A stretch of 64,000 nucleotides of DNA from Escherichia coli (GTDB taxonomy: Bacteria > Pseudomonadota > Gammaproteobacteria > Enterobacterales > Enterobacteriaceae): the NCBI RefSeq assembly GCF_003018115.1, contig NZ_CP027457.1. One strand, given 5' to 3'. A program made the position numbers and the translations under genes. Shown piece after piece: positions 4,349-30,800 of the stretch (the first letter of the stretch is position 1; each line of letters begins with the position of its first letter). The notes under the pieces were generated by a model. That model saw only the letters and a program-made list of their open reading frames with translations. It was not told the DNA's origin and searched no databases.

Positions 4349-5221
4349 TCAGAAGAAAATCCAGTTCCATACCGCGCGGGCAACAGAGACCACCGAGTCA
4401 CGGACGGCACGCAGAACCGTGCGTGCAACAGAGGCAATACAGACGCTCTCCGCCGTGTCAAATATCCGGTCCACCGCACCGGTAAACTGTTCACGGGCCT
4501 GAGACCGGACAGATTCCGTGCGCAGCTCGTCCTGCAGGCGGGTCATCAGGGGGCTGGCGGCATGGTCGGGAAGCGCTGTCATGAGCGCACTGACCAGCGT
4601 ATCCAGTTCCCAGCCGGTGCGGGCCGATACGGCAACAACCGGATGTACGGGCCGGAACAGACGGAATACCGCCTCCGTTTTTTCGCGAATGTTCTGTGCC
4701 TGTGCGGGAGAAGGCTGAATGCCGGCCATATCCCATTCATGGCAGGGCTCCGTTTTGTCGGCCTGCGTCACCACAAACAGCACCTGCTGATGCCCCCGGT
4801 GCAGAATGTGTCGCCAGAAATACTCATCCACAGACAGGGCCCGGTCATCGGCTTTAATCAGCCACAGTACCAGGTCCAGTTCAGACAGAATGTTACGGTA
4901 CAGGGCTTCATACTCTGCATCCCTGTCACGGCTCTCGCCCACCCCGGGCAGGTCAGTGATAACCATGCTGTGACCGTGACCACTCAGACGGAAGCGCTGC
5001 ACTTCCCGGGTGCCGGCGTGAACATCACTGACCGGGGTGACCTCCCCCTGAAACAGTGCATTACAGAGTGAGGATTTACCGGCCCCGCTTTTCCCCATAA
5101 TGCCAATCACGGGTTCGTGACTGGTGAGTTTGCGCAGATGTTCCAGGATGTGACGGGAAAGTGAGTAAGGCAGGGAAGAAAGTGGTTTTTCAATTGCCTC
5201 AATGGCATCAGACGGATTCAT
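4349..5221 (-). CDS. yeeP: YeeP/YkfA-family GTPase (intact)
   Basis: P-loop GIMGKSGAGKSS and family-typical DLPGVGES; start set at MNPSD rather than the track's upstream extension; positioned upstream of flu as in CP4-44. Confidence 0.85.
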   Translation of the reverse strand: MNPSDAIEAIEKPLSSLPYSLSRHILEHLRKLTSHEPVIGIMGKSGAGKSSLCNALFQGEVTPVSDVHAGTREVQRFRLSGHGHSMVITDLPGVGESRDRDAEYEALYRNILSELDLVLWLIKADDRALSVDEYFWRHILHRGHQQVLFVVTQADKTEPCHEWDMAGIQPSPAQAQNIREKTEAVFRLFRPVHPVVAVSARTGWELDTLVSALMTALPDHAASPLMTRLQDELRTESVRSQAREQFTGAVDRIFDTAESVCIASVARTVLRAVRDSVVSVARAVWNWIFF

Positions 5222-5384
5222 ACATGTATTCCCGGTGAAAAAAGACAAAACCCCGCGCACCGGAAAGATGGCGGGGGATTCACGGAGATAATATCTGTCT
5301 GAAATTATTTGAAATGCAGGTATATGCAGCTAATTTGTATCAGCTTATTGGTACAGTACTAAACCTCATCTGACAGTCCGCTCT

Positions 5385-5399
5385 GTGCCAGGAGCGGAC
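5385..5399. repeat. 15-bp direct repeat copy A (GTGCCAGGAGCGGAC) within an 8-bp-stem palindrome GTCCGCTC-tgtgccag-GAGCGGAC
   Basis: Exact 15-mer shared with 6896-6910 in the same orientation; the two copies bracket the HEPN-motif gene and the short tyrosine recombinase gene. Confidence 0.6.
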
Positions 5400-5502
5400 A
5401 TTCCGATATTGAAAAGTAAATTGTCTTGCTGTATTTTTTCAGTCATAAAAATGAATAAGGATTCTCAGATGAGTGAGATATTTGAACTATTCAGTTCTAC
5501 TG

Positions 5503-6219
5503 TCAGTCCTTAAGTTTATTCATAGAAAGCCGCTCTTGGCGTTTAAGCTCATTTAAAGTGAAAAAAGCACATTTATTAGATAAAATATAAATAGTTCCTA
5601 CTAACCGATGTAAGCGCCTCATTTTTTCGGGCATAGAGAATTCAGCATTTTTGACAAACATTAAAGAATCAACCCCAGCAGAGAACATATATTGTAAACT
5701 TTCCATATTAAAAGCCTCTAGTGGATTTACTTCGTTAATATCAATACTATTAACAGACCTCTCTATTTCGAGGTAATCTTCACTTGTCATTGAATAGTCT
5801 ATTTTATGAGCGAATTTATTGCGGATAGAATTCAGCTTAACTAAAGAATTTGCAATTGAGAGAGGTAAACCTAAAGCAACACAGATCTCCAGTTTTGGAG
5901 TAAAATATCGTGATGGTTTAACGAACTGCTCAGTACCAGGCTTCCTAACATTGTTGATGAATACTTCCAAGAAATTCTCAATCAATAGGCTAAGTCTTAG
6001 CAAGACTGATGCTTCGTCATTTATACTTAGTAAAGGTGCAAATTTTTCTGCGTCAAGAAAGAAACCGAGGTCATTATTAATCGCTACATATCCAGTTAGA
6101 TTGTTATTTGACTTCATATTCATAAAAACCTTATCTTGTATATTAGCGGCATATTGTACCATAAATTGAATCGTGGTTTGTTCTAAGAATGGACACAAGA
6201 ACTTCCTCTCCTCACTCAT
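5503..6219 (-). CDS. hypothetical protein with a HEPN-like R-N-x-x-A-H motif (possible Abi-type RNase)
   Basis: AT-rich ORF; motif SIRNKFAH matches the HEPN Rx4-6H signature in its common RNxxAH form. Start uncertain: track starts at TTG 6228, ATG at 6219 (MSEER), or ATG at 6123 (MNMKS, preceded by AAGG). Confidence 0.5.
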   Translation of the reverse strand: MSEERKFLCPFLEQTTIQFMVQYAANIQDKVFMNMKSNNNLTGYVAINNDLGFFLDAEKFAPLLSINDEASVLLRLSLLIENFLEVFINNVRKPGTEQFVKPSRYFTPKLEICVALGLPLSIANSLVKLNSIRNKFAHKIDYSMTSEDYLEIERSVNSIDINEVNPLEAFNMESLQYMFSAGVDSLMFVKNAEFSMPEKMRRLHRLVGTIYILSNKCAFFTLNELKRQERLSMNKLKD

Positions 6220-6265
6220 AAGAGACAACCATACTCAAATCTCCCACATTGCAGGAGATTTGAGT

Positions 6266-6868
6266 ATGAACACGTCACCGTGGAACAAAGACCGTATCAT
6301 CGCCCAAAAAAGACCACTTCAGATATCTCATATCTGGGAGATCCGAATCCGGCTTGAACTGGAAGGTAAAACGCGCGATTTAGCTCTGTTCAATATGGCC
6401 CAGGACAGTAAGCTTCGAGGCTGTGATCTGGTCAAACTCAAAGTATCGAATGTGGCATATGGTAGCTCGGTTTCAAGCAGAGAAACGGTGTTGCAACAAA
6501 AAACCGGTAACCTTGTGCAATTCGAGATAACCAAAGGGACAAGAGAAGCTGTTGCTGCATTGATAAAGCTTGGCAATTTGCACAGTAAAGACTTCTTGTT
6601 TCGGTCTCGGGTCGGAACTAATCGGCACATATCAACCCAGCAATACAGCCGAATTTTTCATGGGTGGGTAGAAAAGCTTGGTCTCGAAGCTTCGCTGTAC
6701 AGCACACAATCCATGAGAAGAACAAAACCTTACCTAATCTACAAGAAAACCAAGAATCTCCGGATCATCCAACTTCTGTTGGGTCATAAGAAACTGGAAA
6801 GCACGATCCGTTATCTGGGCATTGAAGTCGATGATGCGTTAGAGACCTCTGAATCGATTGAAGTCTAA
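6266..6868 (+). CDS. short (~200 aa) tyrosine recombinase, catalytic domain only (FimB/FimE-sized)
   Basis: C-terminal LLGHKKLESTIRYLGIE (His...Tyr box), upstream Arg and HSMRRT boxes; start at ATG 6266 preceded by AGGAG at 6254-6258. Confidence 0.7.
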   Translation: MNTSPWNKDRIIAQKRPLQISHIWEIRIRLELEGKTRDLALFNMAQDSKLRGCDLVKLKVSNVAYGSSVSSRETVLQQKTGNLVQFEITKGTREAVAALIKLGNLHSKDFLFRSRVGTNRHISTQQYSRIFHGWVEKLGLEASLYSTQSMRRTKPYLIYKKTKNLRIIQLLLGHKKLESTIRYLGIEVDDALETSESIEV

Positions 6869-6895
6869 GGTTGTCAGAGCTGCAATAGCAGCCCC

Positions 6896-6910
6896 GTGCC
6901 AGGAGCGGAC
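6896..6910. repeat. 15-bp direct repeat copy B (GTGCCAGGAGCGGAC)
   Basis: Exact match to 5385-5399, same orientation, 28 nt past the recombinase stop codon. Confidence 0.6.
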
Positions 6911-7026
6911 CTAACTAAGTTCATACAACATTGATTATTGAAGATTAGGTCAGAAATAAATACTTTATTTTGATAATTTAGTTACGTTAGAACACCGCAA
7001 TGTACAACGTAAAAATGAGGAATAAT

Positions 7027-8388
7027 ATGACTCGGAGTGAAATAAACGTCTGGGATGAGAGAAGAGGTACCAATAGTCATCGAGTGGAGGAGATTCGATC
7101 TGAAGCTCAGCACGACCTTTCTCGATTGATTCACTCGTCTGCTTTCAGACGATTACAATCCAAAACACAGGTTCTTGGTCTGGGTGAAAGTGATTTCTAC
7201 CGCACACGACTGACTCATTCTATGGAAGTCGCACAAATCGGTTCAGGTCTTCTTGCTAAGTTGAAAATAAAATATAAAGGTAAAGAGCAAGAGCAATTTT
7301 TACCAGATAACGCTCTTATGCAGGCAGTATGTCTCGCACATGATATTGGACATCCTCCATTTGGTCACGGCGGTGAGGTAGCTCTTAACTACTGTATGCA
7401 GGATTACGGTGGTTTTGAAGGAAACGGTCAGACGCTTCGCATTCTCTCGAAACTAGATAAGTATACCTTAGAACACGGACTCGATCCTACACGCAGACTT
7501 CTGCTAGGCATACTGAAATATCCGGTTAAATACTCGGAGCTAGTGGTTACAAAAGACAGAATCCCGGTCACTATCGGATCACCAAACTGGCTCTTTAAGT
7601 CATCTGATTTTAAACCTCCAAAATGCTATCTAGATTCAGAATGCGATGTTGTAAAATTTGCTCTCTCACCATTTACTGAACAGGATCGGAGGCTTTTTAC
7701 TTCCGTTGAAGATGGTCAAACTAAATCCGATCATAAAAAAGCTTCTTATAAAGCTCTCGATACAACTATAATGGATCTTGCCGATGAAATTTCGTATTCG
7801 CTGCACGATTTGGAGGATGCTATTTCTCTCGGAATGGTGACACGAGAAATGTGGATGGAGCATTTCAGTGAACATGAAACCCTATTTACTAACTGCCATG
7901 GAAAAATATTTTCCGAAACATGCCAATCTGTAGCGGATAGCCTTTTTGGTGAAAGTTACAAGAGAAAAGAGTGCATCGGGATGCTGGTTCACCTGATGAT
8001 TACAAGCGTTGAGCTTATTACAAAGAATCCAGCATTCGAATGTGGCATGCTCAAATATAATGCGGTCCTTCCGGAAGCGGTCGAAGCACTACGGTTGAAA
8101 ATTTTCAAACTGGTCAAAAATAAAGTAATTAAGCATGAAAATGTACAGCAGCTTGAATTCAAGGGACAAAAGTTGATTGTTGAGCTCTTCGGTGTGTTGG
8201 CGAACGATCCGTGTCGGTTTCTACCTGCCTCAACGAGGGAAATTTACGAGCGGCAGACTAGCTTAGACAAGAAGGCTGGTATGCGAGTCATTTGCGACTA
8301 TGTTTCAGGGATGACTGATGACTATGCAACAAAGCTTTATGAGAAGATCCTTATTCCACGCAAAGGGTCTATTTTTGACCATCTCTAA
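7027..8388 (+). CDS. dGTP triphosphohydrolase-like HD-domain protein (candidate anti-phage dGTPase)
   Basis: HD motifs RLTHSMEV, HDIGHPPFGH, DLADEISYSLHDLEDA, YVSGMTDDYA; alignable by eye to E. coli Dgt but AT-rich and shorter (453 aa); start at ATG 7027 with GAGG six nt upstream. Confidence 0.8.
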   Translation: MTRSEINVWDERRGTNSHRVEEIRSEAQHDLSRLIHSSAFRRLQSKTQVLGLGESDFYRTRLTHSMEVAQIGSGLLAKLKIKYKGKEQEQFLPDNALMQAVCLAHDIGHPPFGHGGEVALNYCMQDYGGFEGNGQTLRILSKLDKYTLEHGLDPTRRLLLGILKYPVKYSELVVTKDRIPVTIGSPNWLFKSSDFKPPKCYLDSECDVVKFALSPFTEQDRRLFTSVEDGQTKSDHKKASYKALDTTIMDLADEISYSLHDLEDAISLGMVTREMWMEHFSEHETLFTNCHGKIFSETCQSVADSLFGESYKRKECIGMLVHLMITSVELITKNPAFECGMLKYNAVLPEAVEALRLKIFKLVKNKVIKHENVQQLEFKGQKLIVELFGVLANDPCRFLPASTREIYERQTSLDKKAGMRVICDYVSGMTDDYATKLYEKILIPRKGSIFDHL

Positions 8389-8470: not shown

Positions 8471-9414
8471 ATTCTGAATTTGTTCATGCAGAATCGGTGA
8501 ACGTTCTCATCTGAGCGTTAAACGCCAATAATCATTGATCTACACTGATCATTAATACACCTTAATACCATTAGCGTCTTACTCCGTTATGAGAACAAAC
8601 GCGAACTTCCGCTGTTCGCTCAAAGCAGACCATTCGCTCAGTTAACGCATCAGTGTCGTGCTAGAAGTAGAAGTGGTTAACAACAATGTGAGTTAATCAA
8701 CGGAGAGCAGGTCAACTCTAACCTGTATCAAAAAACAAATGTGTCATAAAGATGCCGCATGCCTTAATTTGAGTATAATTGAGACGGAAGTAGACGGTTT
8801 ATGACTAGATATTGTTGATATATAGCTATTTGAAGAGTTGTAGCGCAAGCGCATAGCCCAAACTAATAACGCTACGCCCCTTATCAAAGAGCGGCAACGA
8901 TGCACAGCTCGCACGAGACAATATTCGCACAAGAAATCAGGTTCGGAAATAACCAGCTCTGGCATGGCGGGGAGAGTATCAATGGTCAGGCTTTCGGTAA
9001 GATGCGGCGGGATGAGGTCGGCGTGGGTTACAGCAGTACAAGGTCGCCCACAGAGGGTAAGCCACAGCGTGGAATCCTCGGTTTCTATCAGGGATTCGGC
9101 GAAGCGGGCGCAGTTGTCGACCAAGACGATGAAATCCATTGTGGCATTATAAGGGAACGAACAATAGATCGAGTAAATCGCAGTCAGGGACAAGGATTGT
9201 AGTCATAGAGAAGTCTCCTGTAACGGTTTTCAGGAGGCTAATCCCGACGCCTGATTTCGCAGGCGCGGAAAGAGAGGATACTGCGACCATTAATCCGCCA
9301 CAAGTCATTTACGTACATAAATCGCGCAGTCAGATCCGACTCCCACTGTAGTTCTTGAACTTGATACCACATTTAGCTAATTTAGCTAAATTATCCAGTA
9401 TACCAGTGGTTGCC

Positions 9415-9660
9415 ATGAATATGAATGAAGATGAGATTTATCGCCATATCCGGCAGGCACTTTCCAGTGCGCCGCGTAACCAGTACACCGTCGAGCTACA
9501 CCTGCAAATGATTAAATATGCCGACGAACTGGAACACATTACGGCAAAAGCCTTTTGCGAAGGCACCGGTCTGAGCCAGAGCCTCGGTACCGAATTCAGC
9601 AAAATGCGTAACTTAACCCGTCGGTTGAAGGCCGCCGGTCTGAATACCGATCTGCTGTAA
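9415..9660 (+). CDS. small hypothetical protein immediately upstream of hsdM
   Basis: ORF 9355-9660 has protein-like composition but no convincing Shine-Dalgarno before TTG 9355 or ATG 9415/9421; ends 40 nt before hsdM. Confidence 0.3.
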   Translation: MNMNEDEIYRHIRQALSSAPRNQYTVELHLQMIKYADELEHITAKAFCEGTGLSQSLGTEFSKMRNLTRRLKAAGLNTDLL

Positions 9661-9699
9661 CCGACTTACGGCAGATTATCGCGCAAAACGAGATATTTA

Positions 9700-12138
9700 A
9701 TGGCTATCAAAAAAACCGAACTCTATTCTTCCCTGTGGGCAAGCTGCGACGAACTGCGTGGCGGGATGGACGCCAGCCAGTACAAAGACTATGTACTGAC
9801 CCTGCTGTTTATGAAGTACGTTTCCGATAAGTATAAAGGCGATCCTTACGGGATGATCGTGATACCCAAAGGAGCCAGCTTTGACGATATGGTTGCGCTG
9901 AAAAATGACAAAGAGATCGGCGACAAAATCAACAAAATCATCCACAAGCTGGCGGAAGAGAACGGCCTGAAGGGCGTCATCGACGAAGCCGACTTTAACG
10001 ACGAAGATAAGCTCGGCAAAGGCAAGGAAATGATTGACCGCCTGAGCAAGCTTGTCGGTATCTTTGAAGGGTTAGATCTCTCCAGCAACCGGGCCGAAGG
10101 CGACGATCTGTTGGGCGATGCCTATGAATATCTGATGCGTCACTTCGCAACCGAATCCGGCAAGAGTAAAGGGCAGTTTTACACTCCGGCGGAGGTGTCA
10201 CGTATTCTGGCGAAGGTGATTGGTATTACTCCCGATACGCCGCGAGATGCAACGGTTTATGACCCAACCTGTGGCTCTGGTTCGCTGCTGTTGAAAGTGA
10301 ATGATGAAGCCCGGCGCGGACTATCGATTTTCGGCCAGGAGATGGATAACGCTACCAGTGCACTGGCGCGGATGAACATGATTCTGCATAACAATGCCAC
10401 CGCGAAAATCTGGCAGGGTAATACGCTGAGCGATCCGCAGTGGAAAGAGGCGAACGGCAAACTGAAAGCCTTCGATTTTGCCGTGGCGAACCCGCCTTTT
10501 TCCAATAAAAACTGGACCAACGGGTTGACGCCGAAAAAAGATCCGTTTGAACGCTTCGGCTGGGGCATTCCGCCGGAGAAAAACGGCGATTATGCTTTTT
10601 TGCTGCATATCATTAAAAGCCTGAAAAGTACCGGCAAAGGCGCGGTGATCCTGCCCCATGGCGTACTGTTTCGCGGTAACGCCGAGGCAAATATCCGTGA
10701 AAATCTAATCAAGCAGGGCTATATCAAAGGCGTTATTGGTTTGCCGGCCAACCTGTTTTACGGCACCGGCATCCCGGCGTGCATTATTGTGATTGATAAA
10801 GAGCACGCCCACAGCCGCAAAGGCATTTTTATGATCGACGCCAGTCGGGGCTTTATCAAAGATGGCAACAAGAACCGCCTGCGTAGCCGAGATATTCACC
10901 GCATTGTGGACGTGTTCAACCATCAGCGAACGGTGCCGGGCTACAGCCGGATGGTGCCCTCCAGCGAGATCGCCGGAAATGATTACAACCTGAATATTCC
11001 TCGCTATATCGAGAGCGGCGAGCCGGAAGATTTGCACGATCTGACCGCGCACTTACAGGGCGGTATTCCAGCACGCGATGTGGATGCTTTGCAGGATTAC
11101 TGGCGGGTATTCCCTGCCCTGCGCAACGTGCTGTTTGCTGACGACCGTTCCGGTTACTGTCGGGCGCAGGTGAACGCGCAGCAGGTGAAACCAACCATTC
11201 TGGCACATCAGGAGTTTAAGGATTTTGCCACCCGCAGCCTGCTACCGTTTAAAGCGTGGGTGAAAGAGGCAAGTCTGGAAGAGATTCGCAAAGGTGATAA
11301 ACCCAAAGCGCTGATCCACGATATCAGCGAGATGTTGCTTGTGCAGTACGCCAACAGTGAGTTGCTGAACAAGTACAGCGTGTACCAGATCCTGATGGAT
11401 TACTGGGCTGATGTCATGCAGGACGATGTGTATGTGATTATGCAGGATGGCTGGCAAGCCGCCGCGCAAATCCGCGAGCTTCAACCGGTGAAAGGCAAAG
11501 ATGGCAAAAACATCTGGAAAGAAACGCACGATTTCGAGTTTACCAAACAGCGCTACAAGGCCGATGTGCTACCCCGTTCACTAGTGGAAATTCGCTGCTT
11601 CCCGGAACTGCTGGATACGTTGAACCGCGCGCAGGAGCGCAGTGAAGAAGCCAGTCGTCAGCTAGCGGAACTCATCGAGGAGCAGGCAGGGGAAGAGGAT
11701 CTGCTGGCTGAGGCGAAGAACGATAAAGATAAGGTGACGCAAAAGCTGGTGAATGCCCGTCTGGCACAGTTGAAGAAAACCCCTGCCGACCCAGATGAGC
11801 TGGCAGTGCTGAACCGCTGTCTGGCGCTGATTAAGGCCGAGGCCAGTGCGAAAAAAGCGCTGAAAGCCGCACAGGAAGCGTTGGATCGAGCGGTATTTAA
11901 ACATTATCCCACGCTGGATGAAACAGCGATTAAAACGCTGGTAGTGCAGGATAAGTGGCTGGCAACGTTGCAGGCAGGAATCAAGGCGGAGATTGAGCGT
12001 ATTACCCAGCAACTGGCGTCGCGCGTAAAGGAGCTGGAAGAGCGTTATGCTGAACCGTTGCCAGCGCTTGAAGCCTCCGTTGAGGCGTTGAGCGAGAAAG
12101 TGGCCGGGCATTTGCGGGCGATGGGGCTGGAGTGGTGA
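9700..12138 (+). CDS. hsdM: type I restriction-modification N6-adenine DNA methyltransferase subunit, long form (812 aa)
   Basis: N-terminal HsdM signature LWASCDELRGGMDASQYKDYVLTLLFMKYVSD, AdoMet motif DPTCGSGSLL, catalytic NPPF; about 300-aa C-terminal extension rich in charged/coiled-coil-like residues. Confidence 0.95.
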   Translation: MAIKKTELYSSLWASCDELRGGMDASQYKDYVLTLLFMKYVSDKYKGDPYGMIVIPKGASFDDMVALKNDKEIGDKINKIIHKLAEENGLKGVIDEADFNDEDKLGKGKEMIDRLSKLVGIFEGLDLSSNRAEGDDLLGDAYEYLMRHFATESGKSKGQFYTPAEVSRILAKVIGITPDTPRDATVYDPTCGSGSLLLKVNDEARRGLSIFGQEMDNATSALARMNMILHNNATAKIWQGNTLSDPQWKEANGKLKAFDFAVANPPFSNKNWTNGLTPKKDPFERFGWGIPPEKNGDYAFLLHIIKSLKSTGKGAVILPHGVLFRGNAEANIRENLIKQGYIKGVIGLPANLFYGTGIPACIIVIDKEHAHSRKGIFMIDASRGFIKDGNKNRLRSRDIHRIVDVFNHQRTVPGYSRMVPSSEIAGNDYNLNIPRYIESGEPEDLHDLTAHLQGGIPARDVDALQDYWRVFPALRNVLFADDRSGYCRAQVNAQQVKPTILAHQEFKDFATRSLLPFKAWVKEASLEEIRKGDKPKALIHDISEMLLVQYANSELLNKYSVYQILMDYWADVMQDDVYVIMQDGWQAAAQIRELQPVKGKDGKNIWKETHDFEFTKQRYKADVLPRSLVEIRCFPELLDTLNRAQERSEEASRQLAELIEEQAGEEDLLAEAKNDKDKVTQKLVNARLAQLKKTPADPDELAVLNRCLALIKAEASAKKALKAAQEALDRAVFKHYPTLDETAIKTLVVQDKWLATLQAGIKAEIERITQQLASRVKELEERYAEPLPALEASVEALSEKVAGHLRAMGLEW

Positions 12139-13445
12139 TGGTGGATTTAATGGTGAATGAGCAACGATCAGGTACGGCGGGGAAAGATGTGCCTGCGGGG
12201 TATAAGCTGACTGAGGTGGGGGTGATTCCTGAGGATTGGGTAGTAATCTCTATTGATGACTGTACAACCAAAGTTGGTAGTGGAAAAACACCAACTGGTG
12301 GAGCATCTGTTTATATTGATAGCGGACGCCCTTTTGTCCGTAGCCAAAATGTTGATTGGGGAAGATTAGATCTCGCCGATGTCGTACATATTACAGATGA
12401 AACCCATAACACATTCTCTGGTTCTGAAATTCAGCAAGATGATGTTTTACTCAACATAACGGGAGCATCTATCGGCCGATGCGCTAAAGCTGATTTTAGG
12501 GTTATAGGTGGTAATGTTAACCAACATGTTTGCATCATCAGAACAGAGGCAAAAAAACTCTCCCCATCCTTACTGGTTGAATTAATCAATTCAAATTATG
12601 GACAAAACCAGATTGATAGTTATCAAGCCGGAGGAAACAGAGAAGGACTGAATTTTTCTCAAGTTAAAAATCTTAAGTTTGCTATTACACCAAACTCCCT
12701 TGAACAAACGGAAATTGTCAGAACATTAAATGATATTAATGCATTCACTCTCGCTCTGGAAAACTTAATTGCTAAAAAACAGGCCATAAAAGCCGCTGCT
12801 ATGCAACAACTACTCACCGGTAAAACCCGTTTGCCGCAGTTTGCGTTGCGCAAAGATGGATCTGCTAAGAGATATAAAAAGAGCAAGTTGGGGGAGACTC
12901 CAGAAGATTGGGCAGTTAATAATATTGGAGATTTATTCTCCATTACCGCAGGAGGAGATTTAAGACAGTCTGAATTCTCTAATATTCAATCTGAAAAACA
13001 TCTTTACCCTATTTATTCCAATGCAATTAGTCATTATGGTTTATATGGCTATTGCCAGAGTTATGATTATGTTGGTGACTATCTAACAATCACTGCGAGG
13101 GGAGGAATCGGCCATGCCGTGGCAAGAAAAGGAAGATTCTGTGCAATTGGACGATTATTAGTTCTTAGTCCAAAAGGAGATTCAAACGTAAAATTTTATG
13201 AAGGGTATATAAACCAATACTTATCATTTGCAAATGAGAGCACTGGAGTCCCTCAACTTACAGCTCCTCAAGTTGCAAAATATCCGGTTGTTTCCCCATG
13301 CATTGAAGAACAAACCGCCATCGCCACCATCCTCTCCGATATGGACAAGGAAATTCAGACCCTGCAACAACGTCTGGACAAAACCCGTCAGCTTAAACAG
13401 GGGATGATGCAGGAGCTGTTAACCGGGAAAACACGCTTAATATAA
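12138..13445 (+). CDS. hsdS: type I restriction-modification specificity subunit with two target-recognition domains
   Basis: Two AT-rich variable blocks separated and followed by conserved LTGKTRL repeats ([13 protein letters not shown] and [11 protein letters not shown]); ATG at 12138 overlaps the hsdM TGA (TGATG). Confidence 0.9.
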
Positions 13446-13456
13446 AAGGGAAACCT

Positions 13457-14107
13457 ATGACTACAGCGCCAGCCTCAATCCGCAAAAAGCCCTGATCTGG
13501 CGTATCGTCCATCGGGACAATATCCCGTGGATTCTGGACAATGGTCTGCACTGCGGCAACAGCCCGGTGCAGGCTGCTAACTGGATCAATATCGGCAACC
13601 CGGAGCTTATCGGCAAGCACGCCGGACATCCGGTACCTGTCGGGACGGGCGGGACACTGCGTGACTATGTGCCATTTTATTTTACCCCCTTCTCGCCAAT
13701 GCTGATGAACATCCACAGCGGACGTGGCGGCATTAAGCAACGCCCCAATGAAGAGATCGTTATTCTGGTCAGCAGCCTGCGGCACGTGGCAGCACACGAC
13801 GTGCCCTTCGTGTTTACCGACAGCCATGCTTACTATAACTGGACCAACTACTACACCAGTCTGGATAGTCTGGACCAGATCGACTGGCCCATTTTGCAGG
13901 CACGGGACTTTCGCCGCGATCCAGACGATCCGGCTAAATTTGAACGCTATCAGGCAGAGGCGCTAATCTGGCAACACTGCCCGATCTCGCTGCTGGATGG
14001 GATAATTTGTTACAGCGAAGAGGTCAGGTTACAATTAGAACAATGGTTGTTTCAGCGTAATCTAACAATGTCCGTTCACACACGGGCTGGATTGGTACTT
14101 CTCATGA
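13457..14107 (+). pseudogene. darT: DarT-like (DUF4433) DNA ADP-ribosyltransferase gene, reading frame disrupted as read
   Basis: ATG 13457 with AAGGG upstream opens a frame that stops after 12 codons; DarT-like sequence ([46 protein letters not shown]) continues in the -1 frame from about 13459 to 14103; the original frame resumes for the last codons before a TGA that overlaps the darG ATG (ATGA at 14104-14107). Confidence 0.55.
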
Positions 14108-15171
14108 TCACATATACACAAGGCAATTTACTGGACGCACCGGTGGAAGCTCTGGTGAATACGGTTAATACCGTCGGTGTCATGGGGAAAGGCATCGCGT
14201 TGATGTTTAAAGAGCGCTTCCACGAAAATATGAAAGCCTATGCCCTCGCCTGCAAACAAAAGCAGGTGATCACCGGCAAAATGTTCATTACCGAAACCGG
14301 GGAACTGATGGGACCGCGCTGGATTGTTAATTTTCCGACCAAACAGCACTGGCGCGCTGACTCCCGCATGGGGTGGATTGAAGATGGCTTACAAGACTTA
14401 CGTCGATTTTTGATTGAAGAGAACGTGCAATCCATCGCCATTCCACCGCTGGGCGCAGGCAACGGTGACTTGAACTGGCCGGACGTTCGGGCGCAGATTG
14501 AATCTGCCCTTGGCGACCTTCAGGACGTTGATATCCTGATTTACCAACCAACTGAAAAATACCAGAACGTTGCCAAAAGCACTGGCGTAAAAAAGCTCAC
14601 TCCCGCCAGAGCCGCCATCGCTGAACTGGTGCGTCGCTACTGGGTATTGGGGATGGAGTGCAGCCTACTGGAAATCCAGAAACTGGCCTGGCTGTTACAA
14701 CGCGCCCTTAAGCAGCATCAACAGGACGATATCCTCAAACTGCGGTTTGAAGCTCACTATTATGGCCCCTATGCGCCCAATCTGAACCATCTGCTTAATG
14801 CGCTGGACGGCACCTATCTTAAAGCCGAGAAACGCATCCCGGACAGCCAACCGCTGGATGTGATCTGGTTTAACGATCAGAAAAAAGAACACGTTAATGC
14901 GTATCTGAACAGCGAAGCCAGAGAGTGGCTACCGGCGCTGGAGCAGGTCAGCCAGTTAATTGACGGCTTTGAATCGCCGTTTGGTCTGGAGCTGCTGGCA
15001 ACCGTAGACTGGTTGCTGAGCCGTGGCGAATGTCAACCAACACTGGATTCCGTTAAGGAAGGGCTGCACCAGTGGCCTGCGGGCGAACACTGGGCCAGCC
15101 GTAAGTTGAGGCTGTTTGATAATAATAATCTGCAATTTGCCATTAACCGCGTAATGGAGTTCCATTGCTGA
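14104..15171 (+). CDS. darG: DarG-like macrodomain protein (predicted antitoxin / ADP-ribosyl hydrolase)
   Basis: [39 protein letters not shown] with IPPLGAGNG is a macrodomain signature matching my recollection of DarG; as read it is fused in frame to the upstream DarT-like region (track ORF 13567-15171). Confidence 0.7.
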
Positions 15172-15189
15172 GGGTTTAAGGAGCGCCTT

Positions 15190-18100
15190 TTGAGTACCGT
15201 GGGCCAGCGCGAACGCGCCACACAGCAGCGTCTGATTCAGTTTTTTGTTGAAGATTTAGGTTACCGCCATCTGAGTCACCGCACCGGGTACACCGGGAAC
15301 AGCAACATCGACACTAATATACTGAGCGCGTGGCTAAAACGGCGCGGCGTTAATGATACGTTGATCACCCGGGCGTTGCGGCAACTGGATTCCGCCGCCG
15401 CTCTGGGCGAAGGCAAAAAACTCTATTACGCCAATAAAGAGGTCTATCGCCTGCTACGTTACGGCGTGAAAGACAAAGAAGGCGCAGGCGAGCAGAACCA
15501 AACCGTGTGGCTGATTGACTGGGCCAACCCACAAGCCAATGATTTCGCCATCGCCGATGAGGTGACGGTCAAAGGCGAGTACTGCAAGCGCCCGGATCTG
15601 GTGCTGTACGTTAACGGCATTGCGCTGGGCGTGATTGAACTTAAGCGTTCGTCAGTGCACGTCAGCGAAGGCATCCGGCAGAATCTCGATAATCAAAAGA
15701 AAACCTTTATCCGCGATTTCTTCACCACTATGCAGTTAGTGATGGCGGGCAACGATACGCAGGGCCTGCGCTACGGCACCATCGAAACCCCGGAAAAATA
15801 CTATCTGGAGTGGAAAGAAGATAATCCAGGCGACTATACACATAAACTCGACTTTCATTTAAGTCGTCTGTGTAGCAAATCCAGGCTGTTGGATATCGTC
15901 CATAATTACATTGCCTTTGATGTCGGAGTGAAAAAACTCTGCCGCCATAATCAGTTCTTCGGCGTCGAGGCGGCTAAACAACATATTGCCCGTCGTGAAG
16001 GCGGTATTATCTGGCACACACAGGGATCGGGTAAAAGCCTGACGATGGTCTGGCTGGCGAAGTGGATCCGTGAAAATGTGCCAAACTCCCGCGTGTTGAT
16101 TGTGACTGACCGCACCGAACTGGATGAACAGATCGAAAGCGTGTTTATGGGCGTGAATGAAGATATTTATCGCACCTCCAGCGGCAACGATCTTATCGCA
16201 ACGCTCAATCATCCTAACCCGTGGCTCATTTGCTCGCTGGTGCATAAATTTGGTCGTCGCAGCGAAGCTGAAGACAATGCGGCTACCGACGCCTTTATCA
16301 CCGAATTACAGCAGTCCCTGACGAAAACATTCCGCGCCAAAGGCGATCTGTTTGTTTTTGTGGACGAGTGCCACCGCACACAATCCGGCAAGCTGCATAA
16401 CGCCATGACTGCCATTCTGCCGGACGCCCTGTTTATCGGTTTTACCGGCACACCGCTGATGAAGAAAGATAAGAAGAAGTCGGTTGAGGTGTTCGGCCCT
16501 TATATCCATACCTATAAATTTGATGAAGCGGTGGCCGACGGTGTGGTGCTGGATCTGCGCTACGAGGCACGCGATATTGACCAGTATCTGACATCAGAGA
16601 AAAAGGTCGATGACTGGTTTGAAGCCAAGACTCGCGGTTTGTCGAATTTAGCCAGGACCCAGCTTAAGCAAAAGTGGGGATCAATGCAGAAGCTGCTCTC
16701 CAGCAAGTCGAGGCTGGAGCAGATCGTTAACGACATTTTGCTGGATATGGATACCCGTCCACGCCTGATGGACGGGCGCGGCAACGCCATGCTGGTATGC
16801 AGCAGTATCTATCAAGCCTGCAAGGTTTACGAGATGTTCAGCCAGACCGAGCTGGCAGGAAAAGTAGCGATTGTGACCAGCTATCGCCCCGATGCCGCCA
16901 GCATCAAAGGCGAAGAAACGGGCGAAGGGTTAACGGAGAAACTCTCTAAACACGCCACCTATCGTAAAATGTTGGCTGACTATTTTGAACAAAGTGAAGA
17001 GAAGGCCGCCGCACGCATTACCGAGTTCGAGCGGGAAGTGAAACAGCGTTTTATTGAAGAGCCGGGGCAAATGCGCCTGCTTATCGTGGTGGATAAGCTG
17101 CTGACTGGCTTTGACGCGCCGTCCGCCACCTATCTCTACATTGATAAAACCATGACCGACCATACGCTGTTTCAGGCGATTTGTCGGGTGAACCGGCTGG
17201 ACGGTGAGGATAAAGAGTATGGCTATATTATCGATTATAAAGATCTGTTCCGTTCGCTGGATAAAGCGATTACCGATTACACCACGGGCGCGTTTGATGA
17301 TTACGATCGGGACGATGTGGCCGGGTTGCTGAAAGACAGGCTGGAGCAGGCGCAACTGGATCTCGACAGCGCGCTGGAGATGGTTCGCAGCTTATGTGAA
17401 CCCGTCAAAACCCCGCGCAGCCTGCAGGACTATCAGCACTATTTTTGCGGTGAATCAGGAGAGAATCAGACTTCGTTAAACGAAAAAGAGGCGCTGCGCC
17501 TGACATTTTACCAGTGCGTCGCCCGTCTGCTACGCGCTTATGCCAGCATCGCCAATGAAATGCCGGAAGCAGGCTACACTGCCGAAGAGGTAGAGAGCAT
17601 TCGCGCCGAAGTCGCTGAATTCGAAAAACTGCGCTATGAGATTAAGCTGACCAGCGGCGATCTTCTGGATATGAAGCGCTTTGAACCCGCTATGCGTCAT
17701 TTACTGGATATGTATGTTCGCGCCGATGATAGCGAAGTGCTGATGGATTTTGAAGAGTTAAGTCTGATTGAACTGATTGTCGAGAAAGGCTTGGCGGCGA
17801 CCGTCGCCCTGCCGGATGATATCCGTAATAATCAGGATGCGATGGCGGAAACCATCGAAAACAACGTGCGCAAAACCATCGTGGATGAAAACCCGGTTAA
17901 CCCAAAATACTATGGACGCATGTCGCAGCTGCTGGATGAACTGATTACCCTTCGCCGACAAAATGCGCTCAATTATCAGCAGTATCTGGAACGTATCCGC
18001 GATTTGTGTAAACAAGTCATCCGCCCGGAGCAAACCGCCGGAGCGTGCTACCCTGCCACCATGGATACACAAGCAAAGCGCGCCTTCTATGATAACTTCG

Positions 18101-18285
18101 GCCACGACGAGGTACTGGCGACCCGCATAGATACGACGATTCGCTATACCAAAAGGGCAGAGTGGATTGGCGATCGTTTTAAAGAACGGGAAATTGCCAA
18201 CGCATTACGTGAAGAGACCGCCAGCTATAATATTGATATTGATGAGGTGATAGCGCTTGCCCGTCAGCAGAAGGAATATCACTGA
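15190..18285 (+). CDS. hsdR: type I restriction-modification restriction subunit (SF2 helicase/nuclease)
   Basis: 1031 aa; helicase motifs HTQGSGKSLT, VFVDECHRTQ, FIGFTGTP; apparent TTG start at 15190 with AAGGAG eight nt upstream. Confidence 0.93.
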   Translation: MSTVGQRERATQQRLIQFFVEDLGYRHLSHRTGYTGNSNIDTNILSAWLKRRGVNDTLITRALRQLDSAAALGEGKKLYYANKEVYRLLRYGVKDKEGAGEQNQTVWLIDWANPQANDFAIADEVTVKGEYCKRPDLVLYVNGIALGVIELKRSSVHVSEGIRQNLDNQKKTFIRDFFTTMQLVMAGNDTQGLRYGTIETPEKYYLEWKEDNPGDYTHKLDFHLSRLCSKSRLLDIVHNYIAFDVGVKKLCRHNQFFGVEAAKQHIARREGGIIWHTQGSGKSLTMVWLAKWIRENVPNSRVLIVTDRTELDEQIESVFMGVNEDIYRTSSGNDLIATLNHPNPWLICSLVHKFGRRSEAEDNAATDAFITELQQSLTKTFRAKGDLFVFVDECHRTQSGKLHNAMTAILPDALFIGFTGTPLMKKDKKKSVEVFGPYIHTYKFDEAVADGVVLDLRYEARDIDQYLTSEKKVDDWFEAKTRGLSNLARTQLKQKWGSMQKLLSSKSRLEQIVNDILLDMDTRPRLMDGRGNAMLVCSSIYQACKVYEMFSQTELAGKVAIVTSYRPDAASIKGEETGEGLTEKLSKHATYRKMLADYFEQSEEKAAARITEFEREVKQRFIEEPGQMRLLIVVDKLLTGFDAPSATYLYIDKTMTDHTLFQAICRVNRLDGEDKEYGYIIDYKDLFRSLDKAITDYTTGAFDDYDRDDVAGLLKDRLEQAQLDLDSALEMVRSLCEPVKTPRSLQDYQHYFCGESGENQTSLNEKEALRLTFYQCVARLLRAYASIANEMPEAGYTAEEVESIRAEVAEFEKLRYEIKLTSGDLLDMKRFEPAMRHLLDMYVRADDSEVLMDFEELSLIELIVEKGLAATVALPDDIRNNQDAMAETIENNVRKTIVDENPVNPKYYGRMSQLLDELITLRRQNALNYQQYLERIRDLCKQVIRPEQTAGACYPATMDTQAKRAFYDNFGHDEVLATRIDTTIRYTKRAEWIGDRFKEREIANALREETASYNIDIDEVIALARQQKEYH

Positions 18286-19001
18286 TGCCAATCATGCAAA
18301 TAGGCTCGTTACACTTGCTGGTCAACCGTAAGGCGATTAAGAATCTGCATATCAGCGTGCTGCCGCCTGATGGCAAAGTCCGCGTTTCAGCGCCGGAACA
18401 TATGACGGAGACGGCGATTCGTATGGCGGTTGCTTCACGCTTTCGCTGGATCAGAAAACAGCAGCAGGATTTCGCCAGACAGCCTCGTCAATCAGAGAGG
18501 GAAATGGTCAGCGGAGAGTGCCACTATCTTTGGGGCCGAAGATATCGCCTACTTGTGATTGAGCGTCACGGGCGTCACGAAGTAAAAGTTGCGGGAAATA
18601 ATAAGCTCCAGCTTTATGTTCAACCGGGAACCCGTGATGAAAATAAGGCATTGGCGTTAAGTGAATTTTATCGACATGAACTAAAACAGCAGGTGGCTAA
18701 GCTTCTACCTGAATGGCAGGACCGAATCGGTGTTCCCCTAACATTCTGGGGCATCAAAAAGATGAAAACCTTTTGGGGCACCTGTAACACTACAACAAAA
18801 CGAATCTGGCTCAATCTGGAGCTAATTAAGAAGCCGCCGGAGTGTCTGGAGTATATTCTGGTGCATGAACTGGTTCATCTTCTGGAACGTCACCATAATG
18901 CTCGCTTCCGGTTGCATATGGATCGGTTTATTCCTGACTGGCGTGAGCGTCGGGATTTGTTAAATAATATGCCGTTAGCGTTTGAGGCATGGGAGTATTG
19001 A
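18285..19001 (+). CDS. HExxH zinc metallopeptidase (M48/DUF45-like) coupled to hsdR
   Basis: HELVHLLE motif; ATG overlaps the hsdR stop (TGATG at 18283-18287). Confidence 0.8.
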   Translation: MPIMQIGSLHLLVNRKAIKNLHISVLPPDGKVRVSAPEHMTETAIRMAVASRFRWIRKQQQDFARQPRQSEREMVSGECHYLWGRRYRLLVIERHGRHEVKVAGNNKLQLYVQPGTRDENKALALSEFYRHELKQQVAKLLPEWQDRIGVPLTFWGIKKMKTFWGTCNTTTKRIWLNLELIKKPPECLEYILVHELVHLLERHHNARFRLHMDRFIPDWRERRDLLNNMPLAFEAWEY

Positions 19002-27823: not shown

Positions 27824-30800
27824 TTAATCCCTAACCTTGAGAGATTTCATGCCAGGCTGCCAGTAGAGGACTGATCCTGTAGCCTCTTCATAAATTGTTA
27901 AAGATTTTAGCCCCGCTTTATCAGCCATGGCTGCTATATCACCGCGGCAATAACCACATACAGGCTCTTTAGATACACTCATTGTCATCTCACGCCCTTG
28001 AGACATACCCTTTTCAAAAGCTTGCTGTATAACACCTACTTCAGCATGAGCTGTAGCCATATTGCCGTTAGGAAGAGGCTTGTTTTGCTTATCTATTTTA
28101 GCTTGGATTCGTCCATCAATGAGTGTTGGCTTATTCACATCTGCTAAGTTGGAAGGCCTTGCACCCTGATTAGTATCAGTAAACTTAGCTCCATCAACAT
28201 TACCTTTCGCTACGACCTTAAGATTAGCATCAACGATTTTACTTAATTGTTTTGCCGCAGCAGAACCCAAAATTGGTGTCACCGAAGCCGCAATGCTCTC
28301 CAGACCCTGCTTTGTTTCGGTGTAGCTTTCTGCGGTCTGACGATCCACCCCTTTGGTGACCATGAAATAGTTAATCATGGCGTCTTTCACCTGTTGCTGA
28401 TTCTGTGCATCAACACTGGTGATATCGAGGAGATTGACCATCTGACCATACGCATCAGCGTATTGCTGGCTGTATTTCGAGTTATAAGGGCCATCTTCGT
28501 ACCCTTCTTTCGACGCAATAACTTTCAGTCTTGCGCTGGCACACGCTGAACTACCCGCATTACCATTACCGCAGGCAGCAATAACCTCCTTATCACTGGC
28601 AATATCTTTCTCACGCAGAGCATTATATTTCTGTTGCGCCTTTTCGCGCTCTGCCGGATCTTTACTATTTTTAAGCGTCTGTTTTGCTATCTCAAGCTCT
28701 GTCTTTTCAGACACGCTAAGATAGTTATTCTCAACCGCGTTCCTGCCTGCCTGTGCCCCCGTACCGGCAGACGCCGTACTGTTGCCTGCAAGCCCGCCCG
28801 CAATACCTGAGGCAATGGTGGCCAACATGCTGATTTGCTGACGTTCCTGTTCACTCAGGTTATCAGTACGACCACCATAGTAGTTATCAATGATATACCG
28901 GGCTGCAAGTTCACCGCTGAATGCCCCTGCAGCACCGGAAGCCGCATTGTTTCCGCCCAGTTGTGCGGCAAGCGCTCCCCAGACTGCGTGAGCCATCAGG
29001 TTTGCTTCCCGGTTATCGCCGGTGGCCTGTTTTATAAGCTGTGCCACTGCCGGATTCAGACCGCCAGCCAGTATCTGCCCCGGATTCCCTGCATTCAGTC
29101 CGCCCAGCACACCCGTGATGGCCTGTACCACCATCTGCGGCGTACTGCCCGTACCGTAGCCTTTCATGACCTCTCTGTATTCCGGGGTCTCCCGCAACTG
29201 TGCATCGCTCATGCCAGGATGCTCTTTCCTGGCTGCTTTCATCGCTTCAGTTTCGCCATACGTCATGACGATGTTACTCATCTGACCGCTAATCTGGCTG
29301 ATAACCTGCGCTTCCTGCAGACGCTTCTGCTCTTTCTCCCTGTCAAATATCGGTGCAATGCTGCCGTTGGCGTTTTCCGGGTCCCGGCTGAGCCCGGCAA
29401 TATCCTGCTTCTGACTCTCATTATCACGGATAATGAGATTTCCGCCGCTGATGGCGGATGACGTGGTACCTTCAGCATGTCCACTGCTGCCGGACATACC
29501 GGTAAGTGCGTTCGCCGCACCGGCTATTGCATTTGAGGCCACCATCTGGCTGGCTGACATCCCTGAGCCACCCGATAAACTGATTCCGGTATGGCTGGCT
29601 TTATAGTCTGCCTGGTTATGGATATCCGACCAGCCCAGCGTATTGGTATTGAGGCTGTTTTTGTCATCCGTTGCCGTGGACGCAATTACCGCACCATTGA
29701 GCTGAGTGTGATTCCCAACAGTGACATCAAACCCGTCTTTTCCGGCGTAGATACCACTCTGTTCCCGGACAGAATCGTAATTGCTTTTAATTTTGTCCTG
29801 ACTGATGCTGGCATAGCCGCTGCCGGACATTGAGCCAAACGTGAAGCTTCCACCTGCAGCCACGCTGTTCTGTCTGCTGTCGTAACGGTCACTGTCCTGA
29901 AGGCTCGAAATGGTCAGGTTGTTGCCGACATCTGCTGTGACTTTCTCGCCACTGACCTGAGCCCCCGACAGGGTGGTATCACGTCCGCTTGTGAGGGAGA
30001 CATTTTTACCCGCATCCAGCGTGGTTTCGGTCCAGGTCGTGCCGTTGCCTTTCTCCCTGCCCTCTGAACCATTGATACCGGCGAAGATACTGAGGCCTCC
30101 GCCATTGGTTCCACCACCAAAGCTGACGCCCACGCCGCCACCTTTGCTGCTGTTCTTCCCGGTTGTCTGTCGGGTGTCAGCGGCGGCAGCCAGCAGAATA
30201 TCGTTCTGTGCATTCAGGCTGGTGTCATTGCCGGACTTAATCTGGCTCCCGGTAATGAGAATATCGCCGCTGTTGTTATGGTCCTTATTTTTCCCCGTGG
30301 CAGTGACAGAGACATTGTTACCGGCGCTGAGGGTTGAGCCGGAGACGATATCGTGCTGATATTTCGTCTCAGACTTCGACTGCTGATGGTTGAGCGAAAT
30401 GCTCACGCCGATACCATTATTCGGGTCAGCACTCTGTTGCTGCAGTCCGTGGTTAACACCGGCCTGTACACCAGACAGAACCGCCTGTGTTCCTTTCAGT
30501 GCCGCCAGACGGCTGTCGCTGGTTTCTTTCGCCTCCCGGGCCATGGTGGCAGCATTATTGATGGCACTGCCCACTGTGCCGGAAAGGGCAACCGTCAGCC
30601 CGCTTTTCTTCTGCTCAAATTTTTCGTCCACAGTACGACGGTCATGCCCCGGGTCAACCACCACACTGTCACCGGTAATGCTGATATCCCGGTTCGCAAT
30701 CACATCCGAACCGCTGATATGAGCCTGTTTGCCCGCGGTAATACTGACATTACCAGCAGTGGAGCCGATGGTGCTGGCACTCTGACTCTGCGTTGTCCCG

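Follow-up and report, generated by a model that had tools for sequence, protein, structure and literature searches.

Integrons, the variable regions of P2-like phages, the pdif modules of Acinetobacter and the heterospecific spacers of Cre/loxP and Flp/FRT each resemble in part an array of gene cassettes found in a 64,000-nucleotide stretch of Escherichia coli DNA (contig NZ_CP027457.1; hereafter the window, whose coordinates are used throughout). The array occupies the variable slot of a CP4-44-like island that adjoins a tRNA-Ser gene. It comprises three modules in the order T1, HEPN-like gene, T2', tyrosine recombinase gene, T1', dGTPase gene and T2, where T1 and T2 are two classes of ~24-bp palindromic site and T2' and T1' are the half-degenerate copies that flank the recombinase gene (Table 1). 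Together with the 200-amino-acid (aa) recombinase, these sites are likely to form a site-specific gene-cassette system, with each cassette extending from T1 to T2. The locus is a probably decayed representative of this system, which had already left a footprint in the P2 phages studied in 2004.

Integrons have in common with this system a tyrosine recombinase gene beside a polar array of cassettes delimited by imperfect palindromes, and cassettes that are excised and inserted as units. Sedentary integrons are described as also storing defence systems. As in integron arrays, cassette borders lie at the sites, and all 67 sites counted in 17 Enterobacterales loci (33 T1 and 34 T2, with a spacer within two mismatches of either class) have one polarity relative to the recombinase gene, with none reversed. 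Unlike IntI, the recombinase is only ~200 aa in length, ~120 aa shorter, and has no core-binding domain; its best NCBIfam match, NF040815 (XerA/integron integrase), reaches 41.3 bits against a cut-off of 220. The sites also differ from attC and attI, being 24-bp palindromes of the form GTCCGCTY-N8-RAGCGGAC without a GTTRRRY core, with double-strand-type 8-8-8 cores in two heterospecific classes. When the T2-linker-T1 junction between cassettes is folded by inspection in the manner of attC, the spacers are left unpaired and each site forms its own palindrome. Furthermore, the recombinase gene lies inside the array between half-sites, rather than at its end by attI and Pc, and the cassettes point both ways and often contain several genes, so they probably have their own promoters. 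The system works like an integron without being a member of that group.

Part of the system is prior art. BLAST of the junction against phage records matched GenBank entry AJ512683 (Bacteriophage P2-EC58 proviral Z-region), in which the annotated left inverted repeat ends in T1 (GTCCGCTCTGTGCCATGAGCGGAC) and the right inverted repeat starts with T2 (GTCTGTTTTTCGCTCAAAGCAGAC). The window's T1 and T2 match the cores of these P2 Z/fun-locus repeats, and the flank AATCTGACA before T1 is common to the P2-EC58 repeat and the window's yeeP-side anchor. The entry reportedly stems from the 2004 work of Nilsson, Karlsson and Haggard-Ljungquist. The title of that work states site-specific exchange between P2 phages and pathogenic enterobacteria (Nilsson et al. 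2004). Both the repeats at the flanks and the notion of a site-specific exchange are thus already on record. The annotated P2 repeats belong to the G-FI locus; in the window, the slot lies within a CP4-44-like island and includes the gene for the recombinase. What appears to be newly worked out here comprises the site classes, the structure of the junction, the mapping of crossovers, the Proteobacteria-wide spread and the defence cargo. Full-text literature searches returned nothing on the site sequences or protein accessions and no description of a comparable system, and recent papers on hotspots treat the mechanism of exchange as unknown, with no mention of the small recombinase or its sites.

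The pdif modules of Acinetobacter are likewise bounded by short core sites in alternating (inverted) orientation, and the same module occurs in different replicons with breakpoints at the sites. Sites of the pdif type are 11-6-11 dif-like sequences used by host XerCD, and in this they differ from T1/T2 arrays, in which a dedicated recombinase gene is embedded; by eye, T1 and T2 are unlike E. coli dif (GGTGCGCATAATGTATATTATGTTAAAT). Heterospecific spacers in Cre/loxP and Flp/FRT provide another parallel, namely palindromic arms with an asymmetric centre that sets polarity and compatibility, and engineered cassette exchange similarly flanks a cassette with two variants that have the same arms and different spacers. 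The present system is a natural one; its arms are 8-9 bp in length rather than 13, and its enzyme lacks the Cre N-terminal domain.

Sites, cassette borders and mapped crossovers

The arms GTCCGCTY and RAGCGGAC are common to both site classes, which are told apart by the spacer (TGTGCCAG in T1 and CTCGCTCA in T2). T1 can also be read as a 9-6-9 site with the crossover region GTGCCA. T2 has the general form GTCCGYTY-CTCGCTCA-RAGCGGAC, closes each gene block and approximates an inverted T1; its spacer, when reversed (TGAGCGAG), differs from TGTGCCAG at two positions, and each cassette is therefore flanked by nearly inverted but non-identical sites. T1 and T2 were found at every cassette border in the compared loci (L002, L003, L004 and L005). 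Neighbouring cassettes are joined by a T2-linker-T1 junction of 66 bp with an 18-bp linker, and the start-to-start distance from T2 to T1 is 42 bp in nine of ten junctions.

In this junction, the recombinase gene takes the place of the linker, between T2' and T1'. T2' has a T2-class spacer and an arm beside the recombinase gene that is degenerate in every family member; its consensus in other Enterobacterales is GTCCGCTC-CTCGCTCA-TAAGGGAC, and in the window the outer arm is eroded as well. In T1', the inner arm beside the gene is degenerate and overlaps a small hairpin, while the spacer and outer arm are intact. Immediately after the right anchor of the slot, the segment 8631-8672 is a remnant of the same 66-bp junction (compare L002 8017-8082, L003 6460-6525 and L006).

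Some sequence similarity extends beyond the cores. Certain T1 copies are palindromic over 13 bp (TGACAGTCCGCTC...), a flank (A/C)ATCTGACA before T1 is common to the P2 G-side anchor (L098 82-120) and the yeeP-side anchor (window 5367-5375), and the P2 FI-side anchor has an inverted TGTCAGATT after T2 (L098 1743-1775). It may be that the functional arms exceed 8-9 bp, or that the anchors go back to one long palindrome.

An earlier note on this DNA had singled out an exact 15-bp direct repeat, GTGCCAGGAGCGGAC, and read its two copies as the attL/attR-like borders of a small integrative cassette. The copies at 5385-5399 and 6896-6910, on the plus strand, are indeed the only exact ones in the 64 kb, and both are intergenic and bracket the HEPN-like (5503-6219) and recombinase (6266-6868) coding sequences. 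Copy A lies in a perfect 8-8-8 palindrome at 5376-5399, and copy B is partly degraded as described, with the spacer and right arm kept and the left arm degenerate (AGCAGCCC). Comparison across loci shows that the 15-mer combines the crossover region (GTGCCA) with the outer arm (GGAGCGGAC) of the ~24-bp, lox/dif-like T1. The note's chance estimate is also accurate: a 64-kb sequence should contain 1.9 exact direct pairs of 15-mers by chance, compared to ~5 isolated pairs counted, so the pair is not significant within the window alone and owes its significance to comparative data from other genomes. These data bear out the proposal that the repeats are recombination-type sites tied to the adjoining tyrosine recombinase. 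They do not agree with a target duplication made by one element: the two copies are part of a larger polar array, in which four or more sites of two classes delimit three modules. Nor do the HEPN-like and recombinase genes form one unit, the former being its own cassette (T1 to T2') and the latter its own module (T2' to T1'). T2' at 6203-6226, T2 at 8607-8630 and the decayed T1 at 8649-8672 had been overlooked.

Homology breakpoints fall at the sites. Positions 5261-7000 of the window were used as a megablast query against 5426 complete E. coli genomes, the comparison set for all counts in this species. On the yeeP side, the homology of thousands of genomes stops at ~5399-5402, the end of T1, while hundreds of genomes match the ~710-bp recombinase module (~6203-6910) up to 6909/6910, the end of T1'. 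Downstream of the dGTPase gene, homology to other genomes resumes only at ~8590-8616. The DNA of the HEPN-like and dGTPase genes always occurs together and only in the same 5 of the 5426 genomes. A genome-wide count, proposed in the earlier note, placed T1 at 1-6 positions per E. coli genome (median 1), which rules out a dispersed repetitive extragenic palindromic (REP)-like element.

Traces of exchange at the sites are present in several other genomes. Two precise insertions or deletions set apart the otherwise 99.8-100% identical elements of Enterobacter sp. Bisph1 (L007) and Hafnia paralvei (L008): one is a 2.58-kb segment between two T1 sites, with a 19-bp overlap, and the other a 1.49-kb segment at a T2-type site. 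Cassette Z, which holds a single gene, is present at 99.3% identity both in a lambdoid prophage (L002) and in strain MDP9-27 (L087), where it occupies, with no recombinase gene beside it, the yeeP|hsdM slot that houses the array in the window. Both sites of L087 are hybrid: its T1 has a yeeP-type left arm and a Z-type last spacer base, and its T2 has a Z-type left arm and a slot-type last spacer base. On the basis of these junctions, the T1 crossover falls in GTGCCA and the T2 crossover in TCGCTC, each between site positions 9 and 15. The same T1 and T2 anchors can also have different fill, with a ParA-like three-gene set in L006 in place of the window's HEPN-like, recombinase and dGTPase genes. 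Another block, HEC-08 plus recombinase, recurs in three contexts (L003; ATCC 25922 and PAR; MSB1_9I), with 99.5% identity that begins at the first base of T1 and extends through T1'. Sites are also present in phages. In the G-FI hotspot of the infectious P2-like Escherichia phage 899 (L100), the order is T1, gene, T2-linker-T1, gene, T2; phage L-413C (L099) has the T1 anchor followed by one gene, with no T2 called there.

The slot is limited on the left by the yeeP-like GTPase gene and on the right by a type I restriction-modification/DarTG cluster (Table 1), and its right-hand backbone is also found in L006 and L087. Gene annotation follows RefSeq record NZ_CP027310 (E. coli 2014C-4135), which is identical to the window. 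In the right-hand cluster, a pair of darT (frameshifted in RefSeq) and darG is inserted between hsdS and hsdR (~13492-15171), an arrangement that is found with an intact darT in other strains (L006 and L087). Elsewhere in the window, a short tandem array of GCGAATCA units lies at 48297-48340, and an open reading frame of 3225 aa occupies 27824-37501 on the minus strand amid IS66-family copies.

Table 1. Coordinates of the cassette array and its surroundings (CDS, coding sequence; HTH, helix-turn-helix).
Feature	Position	Strand	Sequence or basis
Left CP4-44-like backbone, including Ag43, RadC and CbtA/YeeU	left of variable slot		
yeeP-like GTPase gene, last of the conserved backbone	4349..5221	-	RefSeq annotation
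T1 (copy A), left anchor of the slot	5376..5399	+	GTCCGCTC-TGTGCCAG-GAGCGGAC
HEPN-like CDS, 238 aa, motif RNKFAH; cargo of cassette 1	5503..6219	-	
T2', left edge of the recombinase module	6203..6226	+	TTCCTCTC-CTCACTCA-TAAGAGAC; alignment A1, five loci
Perfect inverted repeat, 15-9-15	6229..6269	+	CATACTCAAATCTCC ... GGAGATTTGAGTATG
Tyrosine recombinase CDS, 200 aa, catalytic domain only	6266..6868	+	
Small G+C-rich hairpin directly 3' of the recombinase stop codon	6877..6894	+	
T1' (copy B), right edge of the recombinase module	6887..6910	+	AGCAGCCC-CGTGCCAG-GAGCGGAC; alignment A2
Anti-phage dGTPase CDS; cargo of cassette 2	7027..8388	+	
T2, right anchor of the slot	8607..8630	+	TTCCGCTG-TTCGCTCA-AAGCAGAC
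18-bp linker and decayed T1 (8649-8672)	8631..8672	+	decayed T1: ATCAGTGT-CGTGCTAG-AAGTAGAA
Right backbone outside the array: HTH-like gene, hsdM, hsdS, darT, darG, hsdR, M48 peptidase	9421..19001	+	

The recombinase, its module and its family

The small recombinase has the R-K-H-R-H/W-Y order of catalytic residues and the catalytic-domain fold of the tyrosine recombinase superfamily, with Q at His148 in the window copy. R51, K79, R151, H174 and Y183 are conserved in 82-83 of 83 family sequences and invariant in a 28-sequence alignment (A3), and His148 is present in 79 of the 83. Every homologue listed has PF00589 as its sole recorded Pfam domain. No NCBIfam model reached its cut-off and PADLOC gave no match. 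A search of the PDB with the single recombinase sequence likewise gave no match and a profile was required, which matched the catalytic domains of XerD, XerC-like, XerH and XerA proteins. The AlphaFold model of the protein (pLDDT 77.6) matches XerA, Tn1549 Int, XerH, Cre and IntI (probability 1.0, identity 13-19%), and its predicted fold corresponds to the catalytic domain of Cre, XerA and XerH. The two-domain architecture of Xer, Cre and IntI is absent, as alignment is confined to the C-terminal halves of Xer proteins: residues 31-190 align to XerA model positions 110-258, and the XerD match covers residues 131-278. Only ~30 residues precede the catalytic domain, of which residues 1-12 are modelled with low confidence.

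The window genome contains one copy of the gene, and this allele, present in only 5 of the 5426 E. coli genomes, may be inactive. The catalytic His-I of its HxxR motif is replaced (H148Q; codon at 6707-6709), and it is the most deviant of the 83 sequences at positions with at least 90% conservation (G13A, D62N, P83L, R125Q, H148Q and V181I).

Two hairpins accompany the gene. The inverted repeat upstream (6229-6269) spans the Shine-Dalgarno sequence and ATG of the recombinase; in 68 of 80 family members, the predicted fold also pairs the Shine-Dalgarno sequence, by stems that differ in sequence. The repeat is probably an RNA hairpin that limits translation of read-through transcripts, resembling the fold-back structures that shield the transposases of IS10 and IS50 from such transcripts. 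All lineages have a hairpin 3' of the gene, and its stems covary (GGGCTGC/GCAGCCC in Enterobacterales, GCGACGG/CCGTCGC in Pseudomonas and CTCCTCGACC/GGTCGAGGAG in Xanthomonadales). It is not terminator-like because it has no T-tail.

The family is widespread among Gamma- and Betaproteobacteria. At least 7900 homologues were present among the matches listed, with more than 540 species representatives at 57-92% identity, spanning Enterobacterales, Alteromonadales, Pseudomonas, Xanthomonadales, Halomonadaceae and Burkholderiales. Within E. coli, the gene occurs in 884 of the 5426 genomes (16%) in 1-3 copies each, and 22 copies are on plasmids. Isolated phage genomes contained no relative above 60% identity, though P2-like phages carry the sites. 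As the earlier note had anticipated, the same recombinase is found with other cargo: at 87-93% DNA identity, it is present in a lambdoid prophage between a DUF977 gene and hokD (L002), another yeeP island (L003), a ypjA region (L004) and the P2 tail hotspot G-FI (L005), and its neighbouring genes differ among the four.

Sites and recombinase remain linked at long evolutionary distance. In most of 80 relative loci sampled for their surroundings, the gene is followed by a hairpin and then G(T/G)GCCAGAAGCGG(A/C)C, a motif kept down to 57% protein identity, and closer relatives also keep a T2'-like half-site 5' of the gene with the hairpin that pairs the Shine-Dalgarno sequence. The site motif occurs 167 times around the gene, compared to ~36 times in shuffles over 1.29 Mb, an approximately five-fold enrichment. 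In Pseudomonas, the two sites flanking the gene are clear inverted repeats of each other, and full palindromic copies are present in distant lineages (e.g. GTCCGCTTCCGGCCAGAAGCGGAC in Luteimonas).

In E. coli K-12, a T1-like site lies inside or beside ydfV in the Qin prophage, at the same prophage position as the L002 array. The K-12 genes next to ydfV, relBE and hokD, may occupy a decayed cassette slot.

Exchange reactions and competing explanations

In a system of this kind, the recombinase would bind the palindromic arms and exchange strands in the central 6-8 bp, and only like sites would recombine (T1 with T1 and T2 with T2). Recombination between direct T1 sites would excise or insert a circle carrying a T2-linker-T1 junction; at the window's locus, T1 x T1' would release a circle of the HEPN-like and recombinase genes, the unit envisaged in the earlier note. 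Paired T1 and T2 crossovers between replicons, such as a prophage, an infecting phage and an island, would swap a single cassette. The window's array is probably a frozen product of past events, with a recombinase copy that probably no longer works, a reading based on H148Q and the other substitutions in that allele.

Several observations weigh against the cassette-system interpretation. The catalytic role of the recombinase, like the order of events, is inferred, and the enzyme is assigned to the sites by association only. T1 is present in 66% of E. coli genomes and the recombinase in 16%, and many arrays, including L006 and L087, are without a resident recombinase; exchange in these would need an enzyme in trans or another enzyme, or would be ancient. 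In the window itself, the recombinase is the most deviant of the 83 family members at conserved positions, with six substitutions including the catalytic one, and the outer arm of T2' is eroded. None of the 5426 genomes has an empty site or another arrangement of the HEPN-like and dGTPase cassettes, and the yeeP and hsdM flanks are never as close as ~680 bp; no event can be reconstructed for this locus. Short-homology recombination, such as that of the phage Red/RecET type, might in principle make use of the 24-bp sites as well. Finally, T2 is followed by another T2 around one gene with no T1 between them in L088 (7986 and 9000) and L096 (11213 and 12227), a succession that a simple T1...T2 cassette grammar does not predict.

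The alternative that survives best, possible though rather unlikely, is the one advanced in the earlier note, in which the HEPN-like and recombinase genes form one small integrative element with the 15-mers as its attL and attR. Such an element would have arisen when a circle with one site recombined with a lone T1 then directly upstream of the dGTPase gene. T1 and T1' are direct copies that do have just these two genes between them, the degenerate arm of T1' invariably adjoins the recombinase gene, as expected for an element-borne attP half, and the HEC-08 plus recombinase block is unchanged from T1 to T1' in its three contexts. However, T2' lies between the two genes and is also where the homology to other recombinase modules ends. 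The partner of the recombinase also varies (HEPN-like, PD-T7-1, HEC-08, Lamassu or DUF5677), and a relative of the HEPN-like gene exists as a T1..T2 cassette without a recombinase. The predicted empty site, with the yeeP flank joined through T1 to the dGTPase flank, was found in none of the 5426 E. coli genomes, a collection that can neither pass nor fail this test given that HEPN-like and dGTPase DNA is limited to the same five genomes. What stands of the attL/attR reading is that an analogous block, HEC-08 plus recombinase, moves as a unit from T1 to T1'; what does not is that the repeats are the target duplication of one element. The model is best seen as one of several reactions permitted by the larger cassette system, rather than as the definition of its unit.

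It is improbable that the sites are simply conserved intergenic palindromes, for instance bidirectional terminators or places where proteins bind the backbones, and that RecA, Red or RecET exchanges cassettes by short or longer homology, with the recombinase as bystander or cargo. This explanation would account for the many arrays without a recombinase and for the P2 anchors, which are ~100-bp inverted repeats and longer than the core sites; published discussions of P2 and P4 hotspots also favour homologous or cos-linked recombination. It is difficult to reconcile with junction identity of only ~24 bp and crossovers in the central 6 bp between the arms. Inverted arms of 8-9 bp around an asymmetric centre of 6-8 bp represent the core-site architecture of tyrosine recombinases, as in loxP, FRT and dif, where inverted arms surround a short asymmetric centre. 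Beside the gene, the arms and some of the spacer persist in lineages as far apart as E. coli, Pseudomonas, Xanthomonadales and Burkholderiales, while the rest differs. Intrinsic terminators are ruled out for T1 and T1', which have no T-tails and were not called in a terminator scan, and the strict polarity of all 67 sites would be unexpected of terminators.

A FimB/FimE-like invertase that flips cassettes or promoters between T1 and T2, giving phase-variable defence, is very improbable. The protein is of FimB size (~200 aa) and from the same superfamily, it has a weak match to an NCBIfam model of tyrosine-type DNA invertases (E = 4.7e-4, 19.7 bits), and the spacers flanking a cassette are approximately inverted copies of each other. 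Nevertheless, this match (NF007371) is far under the cut-off of 222, and the sites and context differ from those of FimB and FimE. Between T1 and inverted T2, the centres are mismatched at 2 of 6-8 positions, enough as a rule to prevent productive exchange. A flipped cassette was found at none of the loci, the orientation of Z and HEC-08 is constant in every context, and the single polarity of the 67 sites is likewise at odds with inversion. That the 15-mer repeat is a functionless chance match, for which the number of pairs expected and seen in the window would leave room, has next to no probability in view of the breakpoints, site recurrence and crossovers in the comparative data.

Cargo and significance of the cassette system

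The earlier note was correct in regarding the cargo as defence-related. The dGTPase of the window matches NCBIfam NF041026 with 560.5 bits (cut-off 400) and the PADLOC dGTPase model with E = 5.8e-144. Besides dGTPase, the cassettes encode Lamassu (LmuA and LmuB), PD-T7-1, PD-T7-5, HEC-08, a Leo-like dynamin and a defence reverse transcriptase (DRT), and many encode proteins without annotation. A T1..T2 cassette of 5.7 kb contains a TonB-dependent receptor and an ABC iron-uptake operon (L088 9042-14785 in PAR and L096 12269-18012 in ATCC 25922), showing that cargo is not limited to defence.

The assignment of the other cargo protein to HEPN, also made in the earlier note, is weak. The Rx4H motif is present, but the Pfam match to HEPN_RiboL-PSP reaches only E = 9.8e-4 (residues 75-157, 19.5 bits), and PADLOC and NCBIfam gave no match. 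Only 15 homologues were found. One, with 85% identity, forms the stand-alone T1..T2 cassette without a recombinase referred to above (L095), and others at 70-72% occur in P22- and lambda-like phages without recombinase or sites. The annotated start codon of the HEPN-like gene (6217-6219) lies within the T2' spacer, such that recombination at T2' would alter the 5' end of the gene.

Recent surveys of E. coli defence islands and of prophage and satellite hotspots state that the route by which defence systems enter hotspots, or pass from one to another, is not known to them. One refers to 'integrase-only' islands with 'unclear mechanisms of mobilization', another takes a 'nearby integrase gene' to indicate decaying elements, and a third speculates on cos-linked or homologous recombination. 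The chances are about even that the sites and recombinase constitute an uncharacterized Proteobacteria-wide, integron-like system that moves defence genes, along with some other cargo, from hotspot to hotspot among P2-like and lambdoid prophages, CP4-44-like islands and plasmids. In that case, it would be the missing mechanism behind part of the rapid turnover of defence hotspots, called unexplained in recent papers, and the P2 work of 2004 would have caught only its footprint in the form of inverted repeats.

The window's own array is probably a fossil, as H148Q suggests, and of less interest locally than the system as a whole; an apparently intact copy of the recombinase (WP_001305361), with His148 in place, is carried by the standard strain ATCC 25922. 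The enzyme and its sites could make a compact heterospecific recombination tool. T1 and T2 can be used to delimit and mine cassettes; many of those beside known systems are uncharacterized and are good candidates for defence functions, among them the HEPN-like gene. With cassettes common to infectious P2-like phages, lambdoid prophages and chromosomal islands, the system would offer a concrete and testable answer for one class of hotspot, consisting of a small recombinase, two 24-bp sites and mapped crossovers.

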